From a virus: DNA of 5,642 nt. Position 1 is the stretch's first letter; each line of letters starts with the position of its first letter. The stretch lies in the IMG/VR virus record IMGVR_UViG_3300035646_000027; one strand, 5' to 3'. Made by a program: the position numbers and the translations under genes. The notes beneath the pieces are model-generated. The model did not search any database. It worked only from the letters and a program-made list of their open reading frames with translations, and had not been told where the DNA came from. Shown piece after piece: positions 1,347-5,642 of the stretch.

Positions 1347-1730
1347 CTATACCCCCTTTCTGTATCGTTTTTCACGCACATCTACGTGCGTAAAATTTGT
1401 GTATCTGATTACTCCGCCCTGTTCCATAATGCTGTCTGCGTATTTTGCGACTTCTCCGCTGTTGTGTCCTTTCACTACGATATCTGCTGCCATACCTTTG
1501 CAGTGGTAACTGTTTGATGCTCCGTTTACTTTGCTGTTCCAGCTTGGTGTACGGTATCCGCTGTTGATGATGACTGGTGCGTTGAAGTGGTTTCTGATTG
1601 TTTCCAAGATTTCGAGTAGTTCAGGTGCCCACAAGAATTCTTTTGTTTTGTCTTTGCATCTAAACTCCTCTGCTTTGAAGTGCTGCGTTAATCGGTCGTT
1701 GTTTGTTTGGTTTAAGATTGCTGTACTCAT
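1347..1730 (-). CDS. Zinc D-Ala-D-Ala carboxypeptidase-like peptidase of the Peptidase_M15 family (YcbK/VanY-like). It is the probable cell-wall lysin.
   Basis: 127 aa. The M15 signature is FKAEEFRCKD ... INSGYRTPSWNSKVNGASNSYHCKGMAADI ... FTHVDVR, with the H-x6-D and H-x-D zinc ligands. There is no signal peptide or TM segment. The SD GAGGTGG is 7 nt upstream (plus-strand ccacctc at 1737..1744). This is the first gene after the intergenic promoter. Confidence 0.85.
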   Translation of the reverse strand: MSTAILNQTNNDRLTQHFKAEEFRCKDKTKEFLWAPELLEILETIRNHFNAPVIINSGYRTPSWNSKVNGASNSYHCKGMAADIVVKGHNSGEVAKYADSIMEQGGVIRYTNFTHVDVREKRYRKGV

Positions 1731-1751: not shown

Positions 1752-1780
1752 TTTATATCATGCCCGGCTTGATAAGTCAA
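1752..1780 (-). promoter_or_regulatory. Sigma70-like promoter driving the minus-strand operon (peptidase and the genes downstream of it).
   Basis: The minus strand reads cccTTGACTtatcaagccgggcaTGaTATAAAaaaaacaagaGGTGGtaaaaaATG. The -35 is TTGACT, the spacer is 17 nt, and the extended -10 is TGnTATAAA. The predicted TSS is near 1745, about 15 nt upstream of the peptidase ATG. The upstream region is A/T-rich with phased T-tracts. Confidence 0.45.
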
Positions 1781-1831: not shown

Positions 1832-1988
1832 TTTTCAACATTTTCAACGTAGTTTTCAACATTTAAACATTGTTAAACTTTAACACAATAAAGTGTTTCA
1901 ACAATTCAACAAGTTTTAAACAAATCTTTCAACATTCTTTTTAGTGCTTTTTCTTCGTATCAATGTAAAGAAAAAGCACTTTTCAACT
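1832..1988. repeat. Iteron-like array of at least 7 copies of TTTCAAC(A) plus 3 degenerate TT(A)AAC(A) copies. It contains phased T-tracts at a period of about 10-11 bp, which predicts curved DNA.
   Basis: Plus-strand copies occur at 1832, 1841, 1853, 1896, 1905, 1926 and 1981, with degenerate copies at 1862, 1871 and 1914. Two of them form the 9-mer CAACAAGTT (1907, 2016). On the coding strand the unit reads GTTGAAA(A). Confidence 0.5.
1943..1980. repeat. Perfect 13-bp inverted repeat (AGTGCTTTTTCTT / AAGAAAAAGCACT) with a 12-nt loop. It forms an AT-rich hairpin inside the iteron region.
   Basis: The arms are 1943..1955 and 1968..1980, perfectly complementary. The loop is cgtatcaatgta. Confidence 0.6.
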
Positions 1989-2043
1989 TTTCCACATACT
2001 CTACTACTACGACTACAACAAGTTATATAATAAAGGCAAAGCG

Positions 2044-2097: not shown

Positions 2098-2101
2098 TTA
2101 C

Positions 2102-2140
2102 CGTGCGCGTGTACGCGCGTTTCGCGCGTGCGCGTGCGCG
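2102..2140. repeat. GC-rich alternating purine-pyrimidine tract, (GCGCGT)n-like, with Z-DNA potential. It folds as a hairpin with an ACGCGCG-TTT-CGCGCGT core stem.
   Basis: The perfect 7-bp stem is 2113..2119 / 2123..2129 with a 3-nt loop. It can extend to 2102..2140 with G:C pairs interrupted by T/G mismatches. It is a roughly 80% GC island in an otherwise AT-rich intergenic region. Confidence 0.55.
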
Positions 2141-2164
2141 GTCTAACGCCTTAAGAATACGCTT

Positions 2165-2207
2165 AAATCAATAAAAGCCCAGTACCTTACTTGATAGGTA
2201 CTGGGCT
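2165..2207 (-). terminator. Rho-independent terminator downstream of VP4, marking the end of the VP1-VP2-VP4 transcription unit.
   Basis: On the minus strand, 13 nt after the VP4 TAA, AGCCCAGTACC-tatcaagtaa-GGTACTGGGCT forms a perfect 11-bp stem with a 10-nt loop, followed by TTTATTGATTT. Confidence 0.55.
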
Positions 2208-2219
2208 AGGTAACACCAA

Positions 2220-3239
2220 TTACAAAATACCACGTTTTTTCGTTTGTTTTTTGGTGACACGTTCTTTGGTCTCTAAGACGGTTTTATAGTCTTGATTCTC
2301 TAGCTGTAGTCTCTTTTCTTTCATTGCGTTTTTTTGTCGGTTTTGCTTAATTCTCCACAATCTTTGTGGGTTTTCTGCTTCCATCTGTTTTTCATAGTAT
2401 CTTGGAATTTGTGCCCGTTTTCCGTTGACGCATTGAATGTAACCTTGTCGCCAGATTTCCGCTTTGTGCTCTTGATAGTAGTGGTCTCCAAGTCCTGGCT
2501 TTAAGCTCATGCAAGCAAATGGTTTTGTTTGCCCTAGTTCATAGTACGAATTAGCTTTTTTGCCGTCTATTTCGTACATTTTTTTTGTAACGTATCCTGC
2601 AACATATCGATACGTTTCTGGAACTGCTTGTGCTATCTGGATTTGTCCCATTCCCCACAGGTCTGCTAACCATTTACTGGTATAGTATCCGTTGTGGTGA
2701 ATTTTGTACAGATTTTCTAGGTCTGTTGGTTTCCAGCCGTATAGTATCATATGGTAGTGTGGCCTTGCTGTCTGTTCTCCGTACTCACCCGCCACAAAAT
2801 AGCGTAATTTGCCCTTGTAAGCCTTCCTGAGGCGTTTTAAGAATTTTTGAATATCTTCATACAGCAAAATTTGAACACTGCTAGGGCGCTTCTTTCCCGG
2901 CTTCCACGTGTATTGTACCTTTCGCATGATTTCCCCAGTTTTTACTATCATGCCCGGTACATGTTCATCATCATAAGTTAGTGTTATAAACCAAACTTCT
3001 TCTTTTGGATAGTCTCGCGCCTCAAGCTCTATGCGTGTTGTCCAGTCCTCTCGTTGTCTAATTCTGCATCCGATACATTGCCCGCATGGAATCAACATGA
3101 CTTTTGGATTATACATCAAATCTTCATATCTCAGCTGTTTCCCGCTTAACTGAGAAAAGCGGGCGAGTGAATATACCCGCCCGCTCTGTTCTCTATCATC
3201 CGGGTTGTACAGCCTTATTAGCGGCTTGTAACAACTCAT
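2220..3239 (-). CDS. VP4: Replication initiation protein VP4, an HUH rolling-circle endonuclease related to phiX174 gene A protein.
   Basis: 339 aa. It has a CxxC zinc-finger-like motif (PCGQCIGCR), motif [11 protein letters not shown], motif [10 protein letters not shown] and motif [14 protein letters not shown] (compare phiX174 A protein YVAKYVNK, with two catalytic Tyr). A weak SD GGGTGA lies 9 nt upstream. The ATGA overlap with VP2 indicates translational coupling. Confidence 0.9.
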
Positions 3240-4099
3240 TTCAGATAATCACCCGGCTTTCTCTTCTCTCCGTATTTTCCTGTCTTGTCCTGCGGGTTCA
3301 TTGCTCTGTTTTCTTTGTTTTTCGGTTTCGGAGTTGGCACTGTCTGTTCGGTCTTTTCCATCTGCTTATAGGTTTTGAGCAAATCTTCTGTCAGCTGCAC
3401 TGGACTACTATAGCCTGTGCTCATTTGACTGCCTACGGCTTCTGCCAGCTGATACCATTGTGATTTACTTTCACTTCGGCTGTAGTAACTGTTTGGCACG
3501 TTGCCGTTTAGCGTAGACACTCCCAGTGCGCTTGACGCTGGCATTCCCATGCTTGCGCCTGTAATTGTTGCGCCTGCGCCCCCTGGCGTGCTTGCTCCAC
3601 CCTGTGCGTATGCTAGAATTGGGTTCAGCCCGGCTTTTCGCATGTCTTCTACTGTTCTTTGGTATGCTGTATTGCTCATGCGCTCTTGGAATTGTCTGTT
3701 TGCTAGCGCTTCGGCTGAATTGTATGCCATTGCTGCGTTGTTTTCTATGTGGTTGTAAATGCCCTGTTGAATTGCTGATAACGTATTATAGCCCATTTGC
3801 ATTAACATATTTTGGCGGTTCGTTTTGCTTTGGAAGGTATTCTGCCCGCTCTGCCACTCATAGTATTTGTTGAGGTAATCCATGATTTGCTTGTCGTTTG
3901 TTCCTCCTTCGCTCATGGATGTACTCTGTCCCCCGCCTTGGCTTTGGCTCATGTTGCTACCTTGGCTCTGGTTCTGGCTTTCCTGTCCAAACATGCTTGA
4001 TAGGCCGTTTCCTATCAGTGACATTCCTGTTGTTACGATTTCTGGATGACTTGCTAGCCATGTTCCAGCGCTTGTTAACATTGCTCCTAGTCCTGCCAT
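3236..4099 (-). CDS. VP2: Minor capsid / DNA pilot protein VP2.
   Basis: The 287-aa ORF lies immediately downstream of VP1. It has a low-complexity Q/G/S/N/M-rich segment ([26 protein letters not shown]) and the segment [37 protein letters not shown], which resembles the conserved core of gokushovirus VP2. Its TGA stop overlaps the VP4 ATG (ATGA). Confidence 0.8.
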
Positions 4100-4156: not shown

Positions 4157-5642
4157 TTAGAGTTTCTCAAGCCCTGGTACGCTGTAGAGAGGAATGCAGC
4201 GCGTTGTATTGTTCATTACTCGAATCGCTCCAAAAAACTGCGGTTCGTCCTGAACGATTAGCGTCCTTGCAATTTCTGTTTTGCCCTCGCTCATCCACTC
4301 TTGACTTAGTGTCGGCACTTTGTCGTATTTGTCCGCATAGTGCCAGAAGTCCAGCGTTCCATCTGCGTTACTGCGCATTTTACCACTTACCCTGTCCGGC
4401 TTCATGCGATAGTCTGCCCAGGCTTCCTGATAACCGAAGGTCTCATTATCTGTGCTCGTGCCAGTCAACATGATTTCTTTTTTCTTGACAGGCTGTTCGC
4501 CAATATTTGCGAACTGCGGGAAATAGAAGTCCAGTCTGTCTGAACGGCTCCAGAAGCGTTCAAGGCCCTGCTGATAGCTTCTGTTATGACGTACACACAT
4601 GACACCGATAACAAATCCGTGTTCCTCAAAGCTCTTTGTGAAACTGCTTTCGTTGATAGGTGTTACCGACATTGCACCCGTTTCACCAATAGGCGTGTCG
4701 TTTGCGGTCTGCTGTCCGCTGGTCTGCACGATTTGGTTAATATTTACGTGATAGCGTCCGCCACCCAGATATTCAGGTACCTGAACCGTTTTATCGCTGA
4801 TGCTTACGCCAAAAATTGCACGTACCTGCTCGCGGTAGCGACTGCCGCCGCGTGCCAGCGCTTCGTAATAGTGTTGAACTGCAAAAGCTTGCCGTAGCTG
4901 GTTGATGGTGATTCCTGATACGTTGCTTAGGTCTGTTGCCAATGTTGCAATGTTTGCGTCTGTGCTTCCGCTTGCTGATGCTCCATTGATTTGCGCCGCG
5001 TTTTTCACTGGGTTATTCAAATAATTGTTGTTTTCAATAAATGGTGTTGCGCCGCCGATGCCGTTTAGCCAAATTCTGTCTGCTACGTCTTCACCAGTGA
5101 CATTTGTTACTCTCACTGGTGCTTTTCCTGCAATTCCGACTGCTACTTCCGGCCCTCTCTGCGGATACGGCAGACAGCTTGTAAAGTAGTCGTGGAATTT
5201 TGAGACCGGGAGACAGCGCCCGCCTGCAATTGCTTTCAGTAAGGTATTTTCTTCCTTTTCTTCTCCTTTTGGGTCGTCTCGATATTTTATATCTTCATCA
5301 TCTGTTTTGAATAGCGCTGCATTTCCTACGTTCTGATCTCTGAAGAATTCGTTCCAGATTTTAACGTATGCTCTTACTGGTAGTGCATTGATTTCTACTC
5401 TCCTGTTTTCCTCGTGACTGAATATTTTTGTGGGTACTCCCATGTAGTCAAGGATTGATTCTTCGAAAGGTACTGCATCTTGCGGCGATTCGATTATGAT
5501 TTTTGGCACTCTGTAGGTTTTTTCCGGTTCCCACGGTGTTTGCTCTACTTCACCCATGAAGTATTTGAAGTTGTCCCATAGGATTCTATTAGGACAAAAG
5601 AAGTAGTAAAAATCGATGTATGCATCATCGAAAACAGGATAT
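4157..5642 (-). CDS. VP1: Major capsid protein VP1 (Microviridae F-like jelly-roll capsid). This segment runs from the junction to the stop codon, and the gene continues upstream into 1..273.
   Basis: Six-frame ORF 4157..5557, 466 aa. The minus frame stays open upstream through 5558..5642, reading ...YPVFDDAYIDFYYFFCPNRILWDNFKYF-MGEVEQ.... The motifs YVKIWNEFFRDQN, RFWSRSDRLDFYFPQF and a G/S/N-rich variable insertion are typical of gokushovirus VP1. The TAA stop is at 4159..4157. Confidence 0.9.
   Translation of the reverse strand, partial: YPVFDDAYIDFYYFFCPNRILWDNFKYFMGEVEQTPWEPEKTYRVPKIIIESPQDAVPFEESILDYMGVPTKIFSHEENRRVEINALPVRAYVKIWNEFFRDQNVGNAALFKTDDEDIKYRDDPKGEEKEENTLLKAIAGGRCLPVSKFHDYFTSCLPYPQRGPEVAVGIAGKAPVRVTNVTGEDVADRIWLNGIGGATPFIENNNYLNNPVKNAAQINGASASGSTDANIATLATDLSNVSGITINQLRQAFAVQHYYEALARGGSRYREQVRAIFGVSISDKTVQVPEYLGGGRYHVNINQIVQTSGQQTANDTPIGETGAMSVTPINESSFTKSFEEHGFVIGVMCVRHNRSYQQGLERFWSRSDRLDFYFPQFANIGEQPVKKKEIMLTGTSTDNETFGYQEAWADYRMKPDRVSGKMRSNADGTLDFWHYADKYDKVPTLSQEWMSEGKTEIARTLIVQDEPQFFGAIRVMNNTTRCIPLYSVPGLEKL
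5564..5642. repeat. Second copy of the 79-nt terminal redundancy (circular permutation overlap).
   Basis: Identical to 1..79. Position 5564 corresponds to position 1. Confidence 0.93.

Follow-up and report, generated by a model that had tools for sequence, protein, structure and literature searches.

What is the role of a series of short direct repeats in the main non-coding region of a small gut phage? The locus belongs to the IMG/VR virus record IMGVR_UViG_3300035646_000027, a DNA stretch of 5,642 nucleotides, hereafter the window. Comparison of the window with itself shows that the 79 bases at its start recur at its end. Therefore, it corresponds to one complete circular genome of 5,563 nt, which is that of a gokushovirus, a small single-stranded DNA (ssDNA) phage of the gut. 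Every gene is on the − strand of the window, and the repeats are found within the sole large non-coding region (1731-2219), between the gene of the rolling-circle initiator VP4 and a peptidase gene. A first-pass annotation had considered the repeats (1832-1988) as an array of iterons, with VP4 or a host factor as possible binders. In the reading favoured here, the array would probably be made of ten head-to-tail sites for host DnaA, ending in a complete basal unwinding system (BUS) of the type known in bacterial chromosomal origins (oriC), used on the replicative form of the phage. That the repeats are DnaA sites appears highly probable; that the module opens DNA for replication is favoured by a small degree. 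We infer DnaA binding, unwinding and a role in the phage life cycle from how the sequence is organized and conserved, from the portability of the module and from its agreement with host origins.

A directional array of short repeats

The heptamer TTTCAAC occurs six times in this region, always on the + strand (1833, 1842, 1854, 1896, 1927 and 1981), and nowhere else in the window, for an expectation of 1.22 per window. Six or more copies were found in none of 200 shuffled sequences, and six exact copies were reached in none of 20,000 simulations matched to the composition of either the intergenic region or the array itself. Four additional copies on the + strand carry one mismatch (TTTAAAC at 1862, ATTCAAC at 1904, TTTAAAC at 1915 and TTTCCAC at 1989), and none of 5,000 simulations yielded ten copies, exact and one-mismatch together. 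No copy was found on the − strand within the array. The array is therefore where it had been reported, far above chance and with a single orientation, and the comparison with shuffled sequence that had been recommended as a check shows that the motif is enriched. The count has to be corrected, from seven exact and three degenerate copies to six exact and four one-mismatch ones.

Successive copies start 9, 12 and 8 bp apart, then 34, then 8, 11 and 12, then 54 and finally 8 bp apart. The boxes are thus distributed in three clusters of four, four and two (1832-1869, 1895-1934 and 1980-1996), with steps of 8-12 bp inside the clusters and of 34 and 54 bp between them. Because of these two jumps, the phasing of about 10 bp initially attributed to the whole array holds only inside the clusters. 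As for the limits, the start at 1832 stands, but the end at 1988 was drawn too early: the TTTCCAC copy at 1989 is located just beyond it, and the trinucleotide repeats of 2001-2021 and the AT-rich DNA of 2023-2034 had been missed. The reading as short binding sites, repeated in one direction within the main non-coding region, is supported, and it is confirmed that the array is not a CRISPR. The whole module is organized as follows.

1832..1869, + strand: box cluster 1, four head-to-tail DnaA-box-like 9-mers (TTTTCAACA at 1832, TTTTCAACG at 1841, TTTTCAACA at 1853, ATTTAAACA at 1861)
1870..1894, + strand: spacer 1, poorly conserved except for a GCACAA/ACACAA core; relatives have different short palindromes
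1895..1934, + strand: box cluster 2, four head-to-tail boxes (GTTTCAACA at 1895, AATTCAACA at 1903, TTTTAAACA at 1914, CTTTCAACA at 1926)
1943..1980, unstranded: spacer 2, a perfect 13-bp inverted repeat, AGTGCTTTTTCTT / AAGAAAAAGCACT, with a 12-nt loop
1980..1996, + strand: trio-proximal tandem box pair (TTTTCAACT at 1980-1988; TTTCCACA / TTTTCCACA at 1988/1989-1996)
1997..2000, + strand: 4-bp gap TACT, counterpart of the 'GC-rich gap' in the BUS of oriC
2001..2021, + strand: DnaA-trio-like repeats, CTA CTA CTA CGA CTA CAA CAA (3′-GAT-5′ repeats on the − strand)
2023..2034, unstranded: AT-rich stretch TTATATAATAAA, candidate duplex unwinding element, 12 nt here and 12-27 nt of pure A/T in relatives

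Across the modules of related phages, the repeat family can be written TT(T/A)TC(A/C)ACA. At the third box of cluster 2, relatives often have TTATCCACA, the perfect DnaA consensus. The 13-bp inverted repeat of spacer 2 is kept in close relatives by compensatory changes (for instance GTACTTTTTCTT / AAGAAAAAGTAC in L002), and distant relatives differ in sequence. The gap reads TGCT, TTGC, GCCC, GGCC or CTCC in relatives and CCCC in host origins, and the CGA at the fourth trio position is common to the window and to the host origins L159 and L161. The sequence directly after the trios is GTTATATAATAAA.

It was also observed that CAACAAGTT occurs twice in direct orientation, 109 bp apart, at 1907 and 2016 (regions 1904-1915 and 2013-2024). 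Both copies are conserved at about 97-99% across the modules listed. The first is in the central cluster. The second prolongs the series of trios without obeying the trio rule, and nothing equivalent to it is seen in the host origins compared. The CAACAAGTT/CTACAACAAGTT stretch may be a further weak box (TACAACA as compared with TTCAACA) or a site for a phage protein.

Likeness to chromosomal replication origins

According to published rules, a BUS contains a DnaA box with at most two mismatches to TTATCCACA or to the box of the species itself, usually with a weaker tandem partner. The spacer that follows does not exceed 16 bp; it usually measures 12-13 bp from the upstream box, or about 4 bp when counted from the proximal one, and leads to at least three DnaA-trios, 3′-GAT-5′ (PMC6669920, PMC8287927). 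In the window, TTTTCCACA at 1988-1996, directly before the trios, has one mismatch to TTATCCACA; nowhere else does the window match TTWTNCACA, the relaxed DnaA-box consensus. Its tandem partner in the same orientation, TTTTCAACT at 1980-1988, has three mismatches, up to four being accepted for such a partner. The spacer TACT is 4 bp long, which amounts to 12 bp from the upstream box. Three consecutive perfect GAT trios (CTA CTA CTA, 2001-2009) follow in the correct direction, on the strand complementary to 5′-TTATCCACA-3′, and beyond the trios comes the AT-rich TTATATAATAAA (2023-2034). A box at most 16 bp upstream of CTACTACTA is found once in the window and in none of 3,000 simulated sequences.

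The published BUS table is written 3′ to 5′ and was converted here to the box strand. In B. subtilis the order is TTATCCACA, AATCCACA, GGCC, CTA CTA TTA CTT CTA CTA and T-rich DNA; in C. botulinum, TTATTAACA, TATCAACA, AGCC and six CTA; in S. aureus, TTATCCACC, AATCCACA, GCAC and CTACTACTATTACTA. The window reads TTTTCAACT, TTTCCACA, TACT, CTA CTA CTA CGA CTA and so on, then AT-rich DNA, in agreement with the three bacteria in order, strand relationship and 9+8+4 spacing. In addition, the TCAACA variant is frequent among the boxes predicted in the literature for oriC unwinding modules, with 174 entries for TTATCAACA and 47 for TTTTCAACA, Ruminococcus albus 7 being one of the organisms concerned.

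The bacterial BUS, as described for B. subtilis incC (Richardson 2016/2019; Pelliciari 2021; PMC6669920, PMC8287927), thus shares with the phage module the tandem boxes, the 4-bp gap, the 5′-CTA-3′ trios, the AT-rich DNA, the strands and the spacing, as well as further distal boxes placed upstream in the same orientation. Differences are also apparent. The phage module is carried by a 5.6-kb rolling-circle ssDNA phage and not beside dnaA/dnaN; it is compact (about 200 bp for 10 boxes), portable and invertible between genomes; it has a phage-specific conserved extension, CTACAACAAGTT, after the fifth trio, and its AT-rich stretch is short. Since the module is not flanked by dnaA and dnaN but is located in a gokushovirus genome between VP4 and the peptidase gene, it is best filed as a BUS-type element in a new context, and not as an oriC.

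The nearest sequence relatives of the module outside phages are found in bacterial chromosomes. A scan of 185,579 species genomes for three clustered boxes of the TTTCAACA type yielded at least 120 loci with such clusters; among the matches listed, 53 are from Oscillospiraceae, Ruminococcus or other Clostridia, as judged by record titles. An open reading frame (ORF) resembling dnaA, with a Walker A motif and RDH(S/T)T, directly precedes the cluster in eight listed loci (L135, L140, L153, L159, L161, L179, L203 and L215), and in L151 a translation resembling the C-terminal part of DnaA is found just upstream. For L135, L159, L161 and L215, Pfam confirms DnaA upstream (Bac_DnaA and Bac_DnaA_C) and DnaN downstream. 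These dnaA-dnaN spacers of Oscillospiraceae/Ruminococcus carry TTTCAACA clusters ending in box, box, CCCC, CTACTACTAC and AT-rich DNA, the last part reading either TTTTCAACAGTTTCAACAccccCTACTACTACTACTA followed by AT-rich DNA, or CTACTACTACGACTA. Thus, the spacer of L135 ends in TTTTCAACAGTTTCAACA cccc CTACTACTACTACTA aacatatatac and that of L215 in TTTTCCACA gccc CTACTACTACTACTA aaataaatatac; those of L159 and L161 share CTACTACTACGACT with the phage.

In five dnaA-dnaN spacers, 37 TTTCAACA and 8 TTTCCACA were counted for no TTATCCACA. Therefore, TTTCAACA represents the local 'dialect' of origin boxes in these bacteria. It is mainly because the dnaA-dnaN spacers carry this dialect and the same ending that the phage repeats are read as DnaA boxes and that Oscillospirales are proposed as hosts. 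As the module would copy or mimic an origin of the Oscillospiraceae/Ruminococcus type of Clostridia, such Ruminococcus-like/Oscillospiraceae bacteria are likely hosts of the phage. Cooperative binding by a protein connected with replication, already suggested in the first-pass annotation, would be the most plausible behaviour of the array, and the host factor that it named as a candidate fits this evidence. The label 'iteron' is not supported, the units being 8-9 bp variants of the DnaA box, replaced in relatives by TTTTCCACA or TTATCCACA at the same positions.

Phage modules and host origins align by BLAST with up to 83% identity over 96 bp. This similarity is driven by the repeated boxes, and it is thus unusable as proof of recent capture. 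Microvirus genes, as would reveal a prophage or a mis-binned phage contig, were looked for in the 120 bacterial loci listed, and none was found.

Clusters of TTTTCAACA ending in box, box, gap, CTACTACTA/CTATTACTA and AT-rich DNA were also seen in metagenome-assembled genomes (MAGs) of Mesoaciditoga (L166, L233), Athalassotoga (L224) and Anaerolineae (L131). These Thermotogota/Chloroflexi clusters adjoin other genes, and the downstream ORF in L166 and L224 starts with M/LIYAIGD(V/I)HGC. The TCAACA dialect and the BUS layout therefore extend beyond Oscillospirales, to Thermotogota and Chloroflexi bins, which limits host inference from the motif only. Another match was rejected as a relative of the phage module: in a Nitrosopumilus MAG (L221, about 930-1160), the 11-bp unit CTTTCAACAAT is perfectly repeated in tandem about 21 times, a microsatellite matching the search pattern by chance.

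Conservation, orientation and competing explanations

A BLAST search with the intergenic region retrieved 46 phage records sharing a block that corresponds to 1832-2035 of the window, at 70-86% identity. This block is almost always unannotated, two weaker matches overlapping features noted as 'similar to hypothetical protein', and in several otherwise diverged records it is the only match to the present genome at the DNA level. IMG/VR was scanned with two patterns, whose anchors were the trinucleotide repeats for the first and only the central boxes for the second; together they gave at least 107 distinct modules, on contigs of about 5.5 kb. Thus, a module of roughly 200 bp is carried by more than 100 gut microvirus genomes; the presence of the motif in related genomes had been set as a check, and it is kept in more than 100 of them. 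In an alignment of the 107 listed modules, the box cores are conserved at 90-99% and the two spacers at 30-60%, while CTACTACTAC and CTACAACAAGTT each reach about 99%, values that must be read knowing that part of the set was ascertained by a pattern containing CTACAACAAGT. With the box-only anchor, 80 of the 87 modules listed keep CTAC[TG]AC[TG]AC trios downstream. At orthologous positions, among the matches listed (73 to 107 modules), TTTTCAACA was counted 193 times, CTTTCAACA 142 times, TTTTCCACA 44 times and the perfect consensus TTATCCACA 12 times. In KT264799, the module is reduced to two boxes, gap, trios and AT-rich stretch, that is, to a minimal BUS.

The position of the module was scored in 68 complete genomes, the module being written from boxes to trios on the + strand. 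In 54 genomes, the group to which the window belongs, all genes are on the opposite strand and the module comes after VP4. In the 14 others, the genes are on the same strand and the module is found either between VP2 and VP4 (12 genomes) or between VP4 and the peptidase gene (two genomes). Annotated GenBank records confirm all three layouts. At four-fold-degenerate sites of VP1, the coding strand is A-rich in both orientation classes, with AT skews of +0.51 and +0.49. Because the skew is equal in the two classes, strand asymmetry follows the genes, not the module.

As a separate matter, the VP1 coding strand is A-rich and T-poor in the 68 related genomes (window 4157-5563 and 1-273), the non-coding strand being T-rich. 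The viral (coding) strand of phiX174 is T-rich, which is the reverse of the skew seen here. The VP1 skew could reflect codon usage, or the non-coding strand spending time single-stranded.

Several alternatives to an unwinding function have to be considered in the light of the surroundings of the module, which comprise the following features.

273, wrapping to 4157, − strand: VP1, major capsid protein (Pfam Phage_F)
4099..3236, − strand: VP2
3239..2220, − strand: VP4, rolling-circle initiator (Pfam REP_ORF2-G2P), with the HUH motif (HYH) and the two-tyrosine motif (YVAGY) intact
2176..2207, unstranded: conserved hairpin just 3′ of VP4, separate from the module; its loop reads TACTTGAT on the + strand, and on the coding strand it resembles a terminator
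2100..2142, unstranded: GC-rich alternating purine-pyrimidine tract, a flank outside the core, with an inverted repeat (CGTGCGCG...)
1752..1780, − strand: strong promoter of the sigma-A type outside the module, recognized by inspection of the sequence (TTGACT-17 nt-TATAAA, TG extended −10)
1730..1347, − strand: peptidase M15
− strand: genes homologous to VP5 and to the VP3 scaffold protein

The alternative that survives best, although improbable, is that the module acts only as a DnaA sponge. The boxes would titrate DnaA, so that the multicopy replicative form would block host initiation and de-repress dnaA, with no replication start on the phage. Titration by cloned clusters of DnaA boxes is established for B. 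subtilis and E. coli (datA; 'inc' box clusters on plasmids). The presence of ten boxes in each genome, grouped in a single cassette, and the free position and orientation of the module would agree with such a function. However, titration needs boxes alone, yet conservation of the trios and of the AT-rich stretch equals or exceeds that of the boxes, and the trios are kept in the 80 of 87 modules listed via an anchor that ignores them. KT264799, moreover, retains the two proximal boxes and the trios and has lost the distal boxes, the opposite of what is predicted; its reduction to the minimal unwinding unit argues against a pure DnaA sponge. The comparison with known titrating loci points in the same direction. 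In E. coli datA and in the B. subtilis box clusters or 'inc' regions, boxes away from the origin sequester the initiator; these loci are devoid of a conserved trio and AT-rich unwinding element, whereas in the phage module that element is the most conserved part.

A role in promoter architecture is less probable again. In this case, bent T-tracts, an UP-like element or DnaA acting as a transcription factor would tune the promoter at 1752-1780. TTTT runs at 1832, 1841 and 1852, 9-11 bp apart, are indeed located 51-80 bp upstream of this near-consensus promoter, and curved upstream DNA stimulates promoters of Gram-positive phages. Nevertheless, in the 14 co-oriented genomes the box end of the module abuts the end of VP2 or VP4, and there is no divergent promoter. 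An effect through bending or an UP element may exist locally, but the relation to a promoter varies from one genome layout to another. Conservation peaks in the CAACA cores and the trios and not in the phasing of the T-tracts, which is restricted to steps of 8-12 bp within clusters and broken by the 34- and 54-bp gaps. Intrinsic bending by phased T-tracts, as first proposed, may contribute, yet it leaves the conserved CAACA cores and the trios unexplained.

It is quite unlikely that the repeats are iterons through which VP4 recognizes the rolling-circle origin. The array adjoins VP4 in all three genome layouts, and the conserved phage-specific CAACAAGTT, present twice, shares 7 of 10 positions with CAACTTGATA, the cleavage decamer of phiX174. 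Against VP4 as the primary binder, arrays of the same motif are found between dnaA and dnaN in chromosomes of bacteria without microvirus genes, and the phage array ends in an oriC-like trio/AT-rich element. The boxes interchange with canonical DnaA boxes in relatives, their units are of 8-9 bp and not of 17-22 bp, and inversion of the module relative to the genes is not accompanied by an inversion of the strand skew. Finally, a better candidate for the nick site is available outside the array, in the loop ACTTGATA of the VP4-side hairpin, whose polarity is fixed relative to the genes.

This hairpin was compared in the window and in L001-L005, L010, L011, L022, L107 and L320. Its loop (A/T)ACTTGAT(A/T) is kept, while the stems differ completely (for instance GCCCAGTACCT, GGGCCTATTCCT and GGGGGCCGCAA), and the loop motif is always on the strand opposite the genes, independently of the module. 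The loop matches the viral-strand origin of phiX174 around the nick, CAACTTG^ATA (NC_001422), the 8/8 match ACTTGATA (2190-2197) being located outside the array, on the strand that does not carry the genes. An 8-nt match is not significant by itself, the probability of one arising somewhere in 11 kb (both strands) being estimated at about 0.17. It is because the loop is set within a covarying hairpin that it represents a better nick-site candidate than the array, and the hairpin is regarded as a putative VP4 nick site. If so, the nicked, perhaps packaged, strand would be antisense to the genes. Candidate VP4 rolling-circle origin sequences are TACTTGATAGG as against CTACAACAAGTTATA. The origin of the phiX174 gene A protein (30 bp, CAACTTG^ATATTAATAACACTATAGACCAC) belongs to a member of the same virus family, and its initiator is likewise of the HUH type with a two-tyrosine motif (HYH ... 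YVAGY in VP4). However, the array does not resemble it, the sole phiX-like piece of the window being ACTTGATA in the 2176-2207 hairpin. A phiX174-like origin inside the array was thus rejected: the boxes are unlike it, and CAACAAGTTA at 2016-2025 matches 7 of 10 positions only. The distance from the CTTGAT hairpin to the AT-rich end of the module is 41-228 nt in class I, and the two do not adjoin in co-oriented genomes. A strict geometry in which DnaA would open the nick hairpin was dropped, the hairpin being away from the AT-rich end in those genomes.

An origin of the complementary strand, where the packaged strand would fold or be recognized as ssDNA to prime conversion, is equally improbable. 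The phiX174 PAS, the G4 ori(−), plasmid sso and the 'A site' of the ABC primosome, a hairpin with a DnaA box, would be the models. The main intergenic location is that of such origins, and a perfect 13-bp hairpin is present inside the module (1943-1980). However, the orientation of the module to the coding strand varies (54 versus 14 genomes) and the skew does not flip along. When both strands were folded as ssDNA, only the 13-bp hairpin was stable, boxes and trios remaining open, and the overall fold was marginally better than that of shuffled sequences (z = −2.0 and −2.7). The hairpin itself is conserved in close relatives only and does not contain a DnaA box. A cassette found in either orientation and without single-strand structure points to an action on the double-stranded replicative form. 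The module would thus behave as a portable cassette acting on double-stranded DNA.

Last, an array of Spo0A boxes through which the phage would sense host sporulation, as phi29 does, with sites resembling TGTCGAA, is very improbable: many Oscillospirales sporulate, the reverse site TTCGACA is one mismatch from TTCAACA, 0A-boxes and DnaA-boxes overlap at the B. subtilis oriC, and the host origin L169 has TTTCGACA beside its trios, but the whole window contains no exact 0A box (TGTCGAA), the variable position of the family is A/C (TCAACA / TCCACA) as in DnaA boxes and not the CG of 0A boxes, and adjacency to trios is specific to DnaA.

Other mobile replicons with sites for host regulators are of interest for comparison. 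The theta origins of pSC101, P1 oriR, F, RK2 and R6K recruit host DnaA via boxes beside an AT-rich opening region, and the phage module likewise associates DnaA boxes with AT-rich DNA on a mobile replicon. In those plasmid and phage origins, 1-5 DnaA boxes assist a plasmid Rep bound to iterons of 17-22 bp. In the present module, by contrast, the array consists of the DnaA boxes, with no iterons beside them; a DnaA-trio element accompanies it, and the initiator of the phage, VP4, is an HUH nickase and not an iteron-binding Rep. Phage phi29 carries sites for host Spo0A and ParB/parS sites, which couple its replication to the state of the host. It is also a small phage genome with sites for a regulator of the host chromosome cycle, though the protein, the motif and the type of phage are different, and no 0A box occurs in the window.

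As regards the remaining surroundings, the closest database relatives of the genome are gut gokushoviruses from faeces of human, pig and monkey. The non-coding region is limited on the right by the terminator-like hairpin after VP4 (2176-2207) and on the left by the near-consensus promoter. This promoter, 51 bp from the first box, directs transcription away from the array into the peptidase M15 gene; it was missed by a consensus scanner because the latter demands T at the last −10 position, which is A here. Downstream of it, a strong Shine-Dalgarno sequence, AGAGGTGG, precedes the peptidase gene. The Gram-positive style of these signals agrees with a predicted Clostridia host. To the right of the AT-rich stretch, the GC-rich tract of 2100-2142 (CGTGCGCGTGTACGCGCG / CGCGCGTGCGCGTGCGCG), which doubles as a 20-nt imperfect inverted repeat, has a similar tract at the same place in many relatives. 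It might form Z-DNA or a cruciform, and might serve as a boundary or supercoil sink beside the unwinding region. Between the module and this tract (2043-2097), two short inverted repeats, GTTATCCCT/AGGGATTAC and AATAGGGATTAC/GTACTCCCTATT, are common to the closest relatives L117, L293 and L315 and absent from the wider clade. An Rfam scan of the whole window on both strands at a permissive threshold gave no match in the array. The sole match was below threshold, a Termite-leu RNA at 3102-3189 on the − strand, inside VP4 (26.2 bits for a gathering score of 51, E = 0.017); it is caused by the GC-rich hairpin GCGGGCGGG...CTCGCCCGC in the VP4 coding sequence and probably arises by chance.

Proposed mechanism and significance

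Considering the architecture of the module, the following scheme may be envisaged. On the double-stranded replicative form, DnaA-ATP would fill the ten boxes, oligomerize toward the trios and engage the trio strand (the − strand of the window, 3′-GAT-5′). The adjoining AT-rich DNA, TTATATAATAAA, would then melt. In Firmicutes, helicase loading occurs at such an open complex. The complex formed on the phage would load host helicase and primase and give rise to a DnaA-dependent, theta-type copying of the replicative form. Alternatively, it would at least supply ssDNA and helicase for rolling-circle synthesis driven by VP4. As a by-product, DnaA would be titrated away from the host chromosome.

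Several observations weigh against a DnaA-dependent unwinding module or against the host proposed for it. The phage has kept an intact rolling-circle initiator, VP4, so that the need for a second, DnaA-dependent mode is not obvious. All but one of the ten boxes of the window differ from TTATCCACA at 2-4 positions, three of the trios (the fourth, CGA, and the sixth and seventh, both CAA) break the 3′-NAN-5′ rule of a middle A, and the AT-rich stretch, with 12 nt in the window, is short. DnaA does not account for the very strong conservation of CTACAACAAGTT, a sequence for which the host origins compared offer no equivalent; since CTACAACAAGTT is conserved like the boxes, a second binder is possible. 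Two IMG/VR microvirus contigs, L253 and L314, are natural variants without trios. On the bacterial side, the putative host origins were recognized from their dnaA-dnaN spacer position and the published prediction rules, the assignment of the host is indirect, the bacterial loci coming for the most part from metagenome bins, and among those listed no link through a prophage or CRISPR was found.

The two trio-less variants differ from each other. In L253, the last box and CTACAACAAGTT are separated by unrelated sequence; the module of L314 stops after spacer 2, directly followed by the VP4-side hairpin.

A search of the literature found nothing relevant joining microviruses, gokushoviruses or Microviridae with DnaA, a DnaA box or an oriC-like element, and the literal sequences CAACTTGATA and TTTTCAACA matched unrelated primers only. 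The BUS is a known type of element, which appears to be unreported as a portable cassette on rolling-circle ssDNA phages. Replication of Microviridae is taught as a rolling-circle process run by the phage nickase, with host enzymes in supporting roles only. A bolder idea, which we hold as tentative and rather doubtful, is that a large clade of gut gokushoviruses has captured a working chromosomal origin from its hosts, the replicative form being a DnaA-dependent minichromosome replicating in theta mode, in step or in competition with the host chromosome. If this were true, ssDNA phages considered as 'strictly lytic' would be able to persist like plasmids, in a carrier state that does not involve integration. 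Phages would pass the cassette to one another and adapt it to the DnaA-box dialect of each host, so that its sequence could serve as a host barcode.

If the module is indeed a DnaA-dependent unwinding element, it would represent a naturally minimized and portable unit, of about 55-200 bp, for the study of DNA opening by DnaA in Clostridia, and it could provide an origin or incompatibility part for genetic tools in gut anaerobes that are hard to transform. It would also allow a sequence-based prediction of hosts (Oscillospiraceae/Ruminococcus) for a clade without any cultured host. Above all, more than 100 gut gokushoviruses would possess a second step of replication dependent on the host initiator, which might explain the persistence of these abundant uncultured phages.

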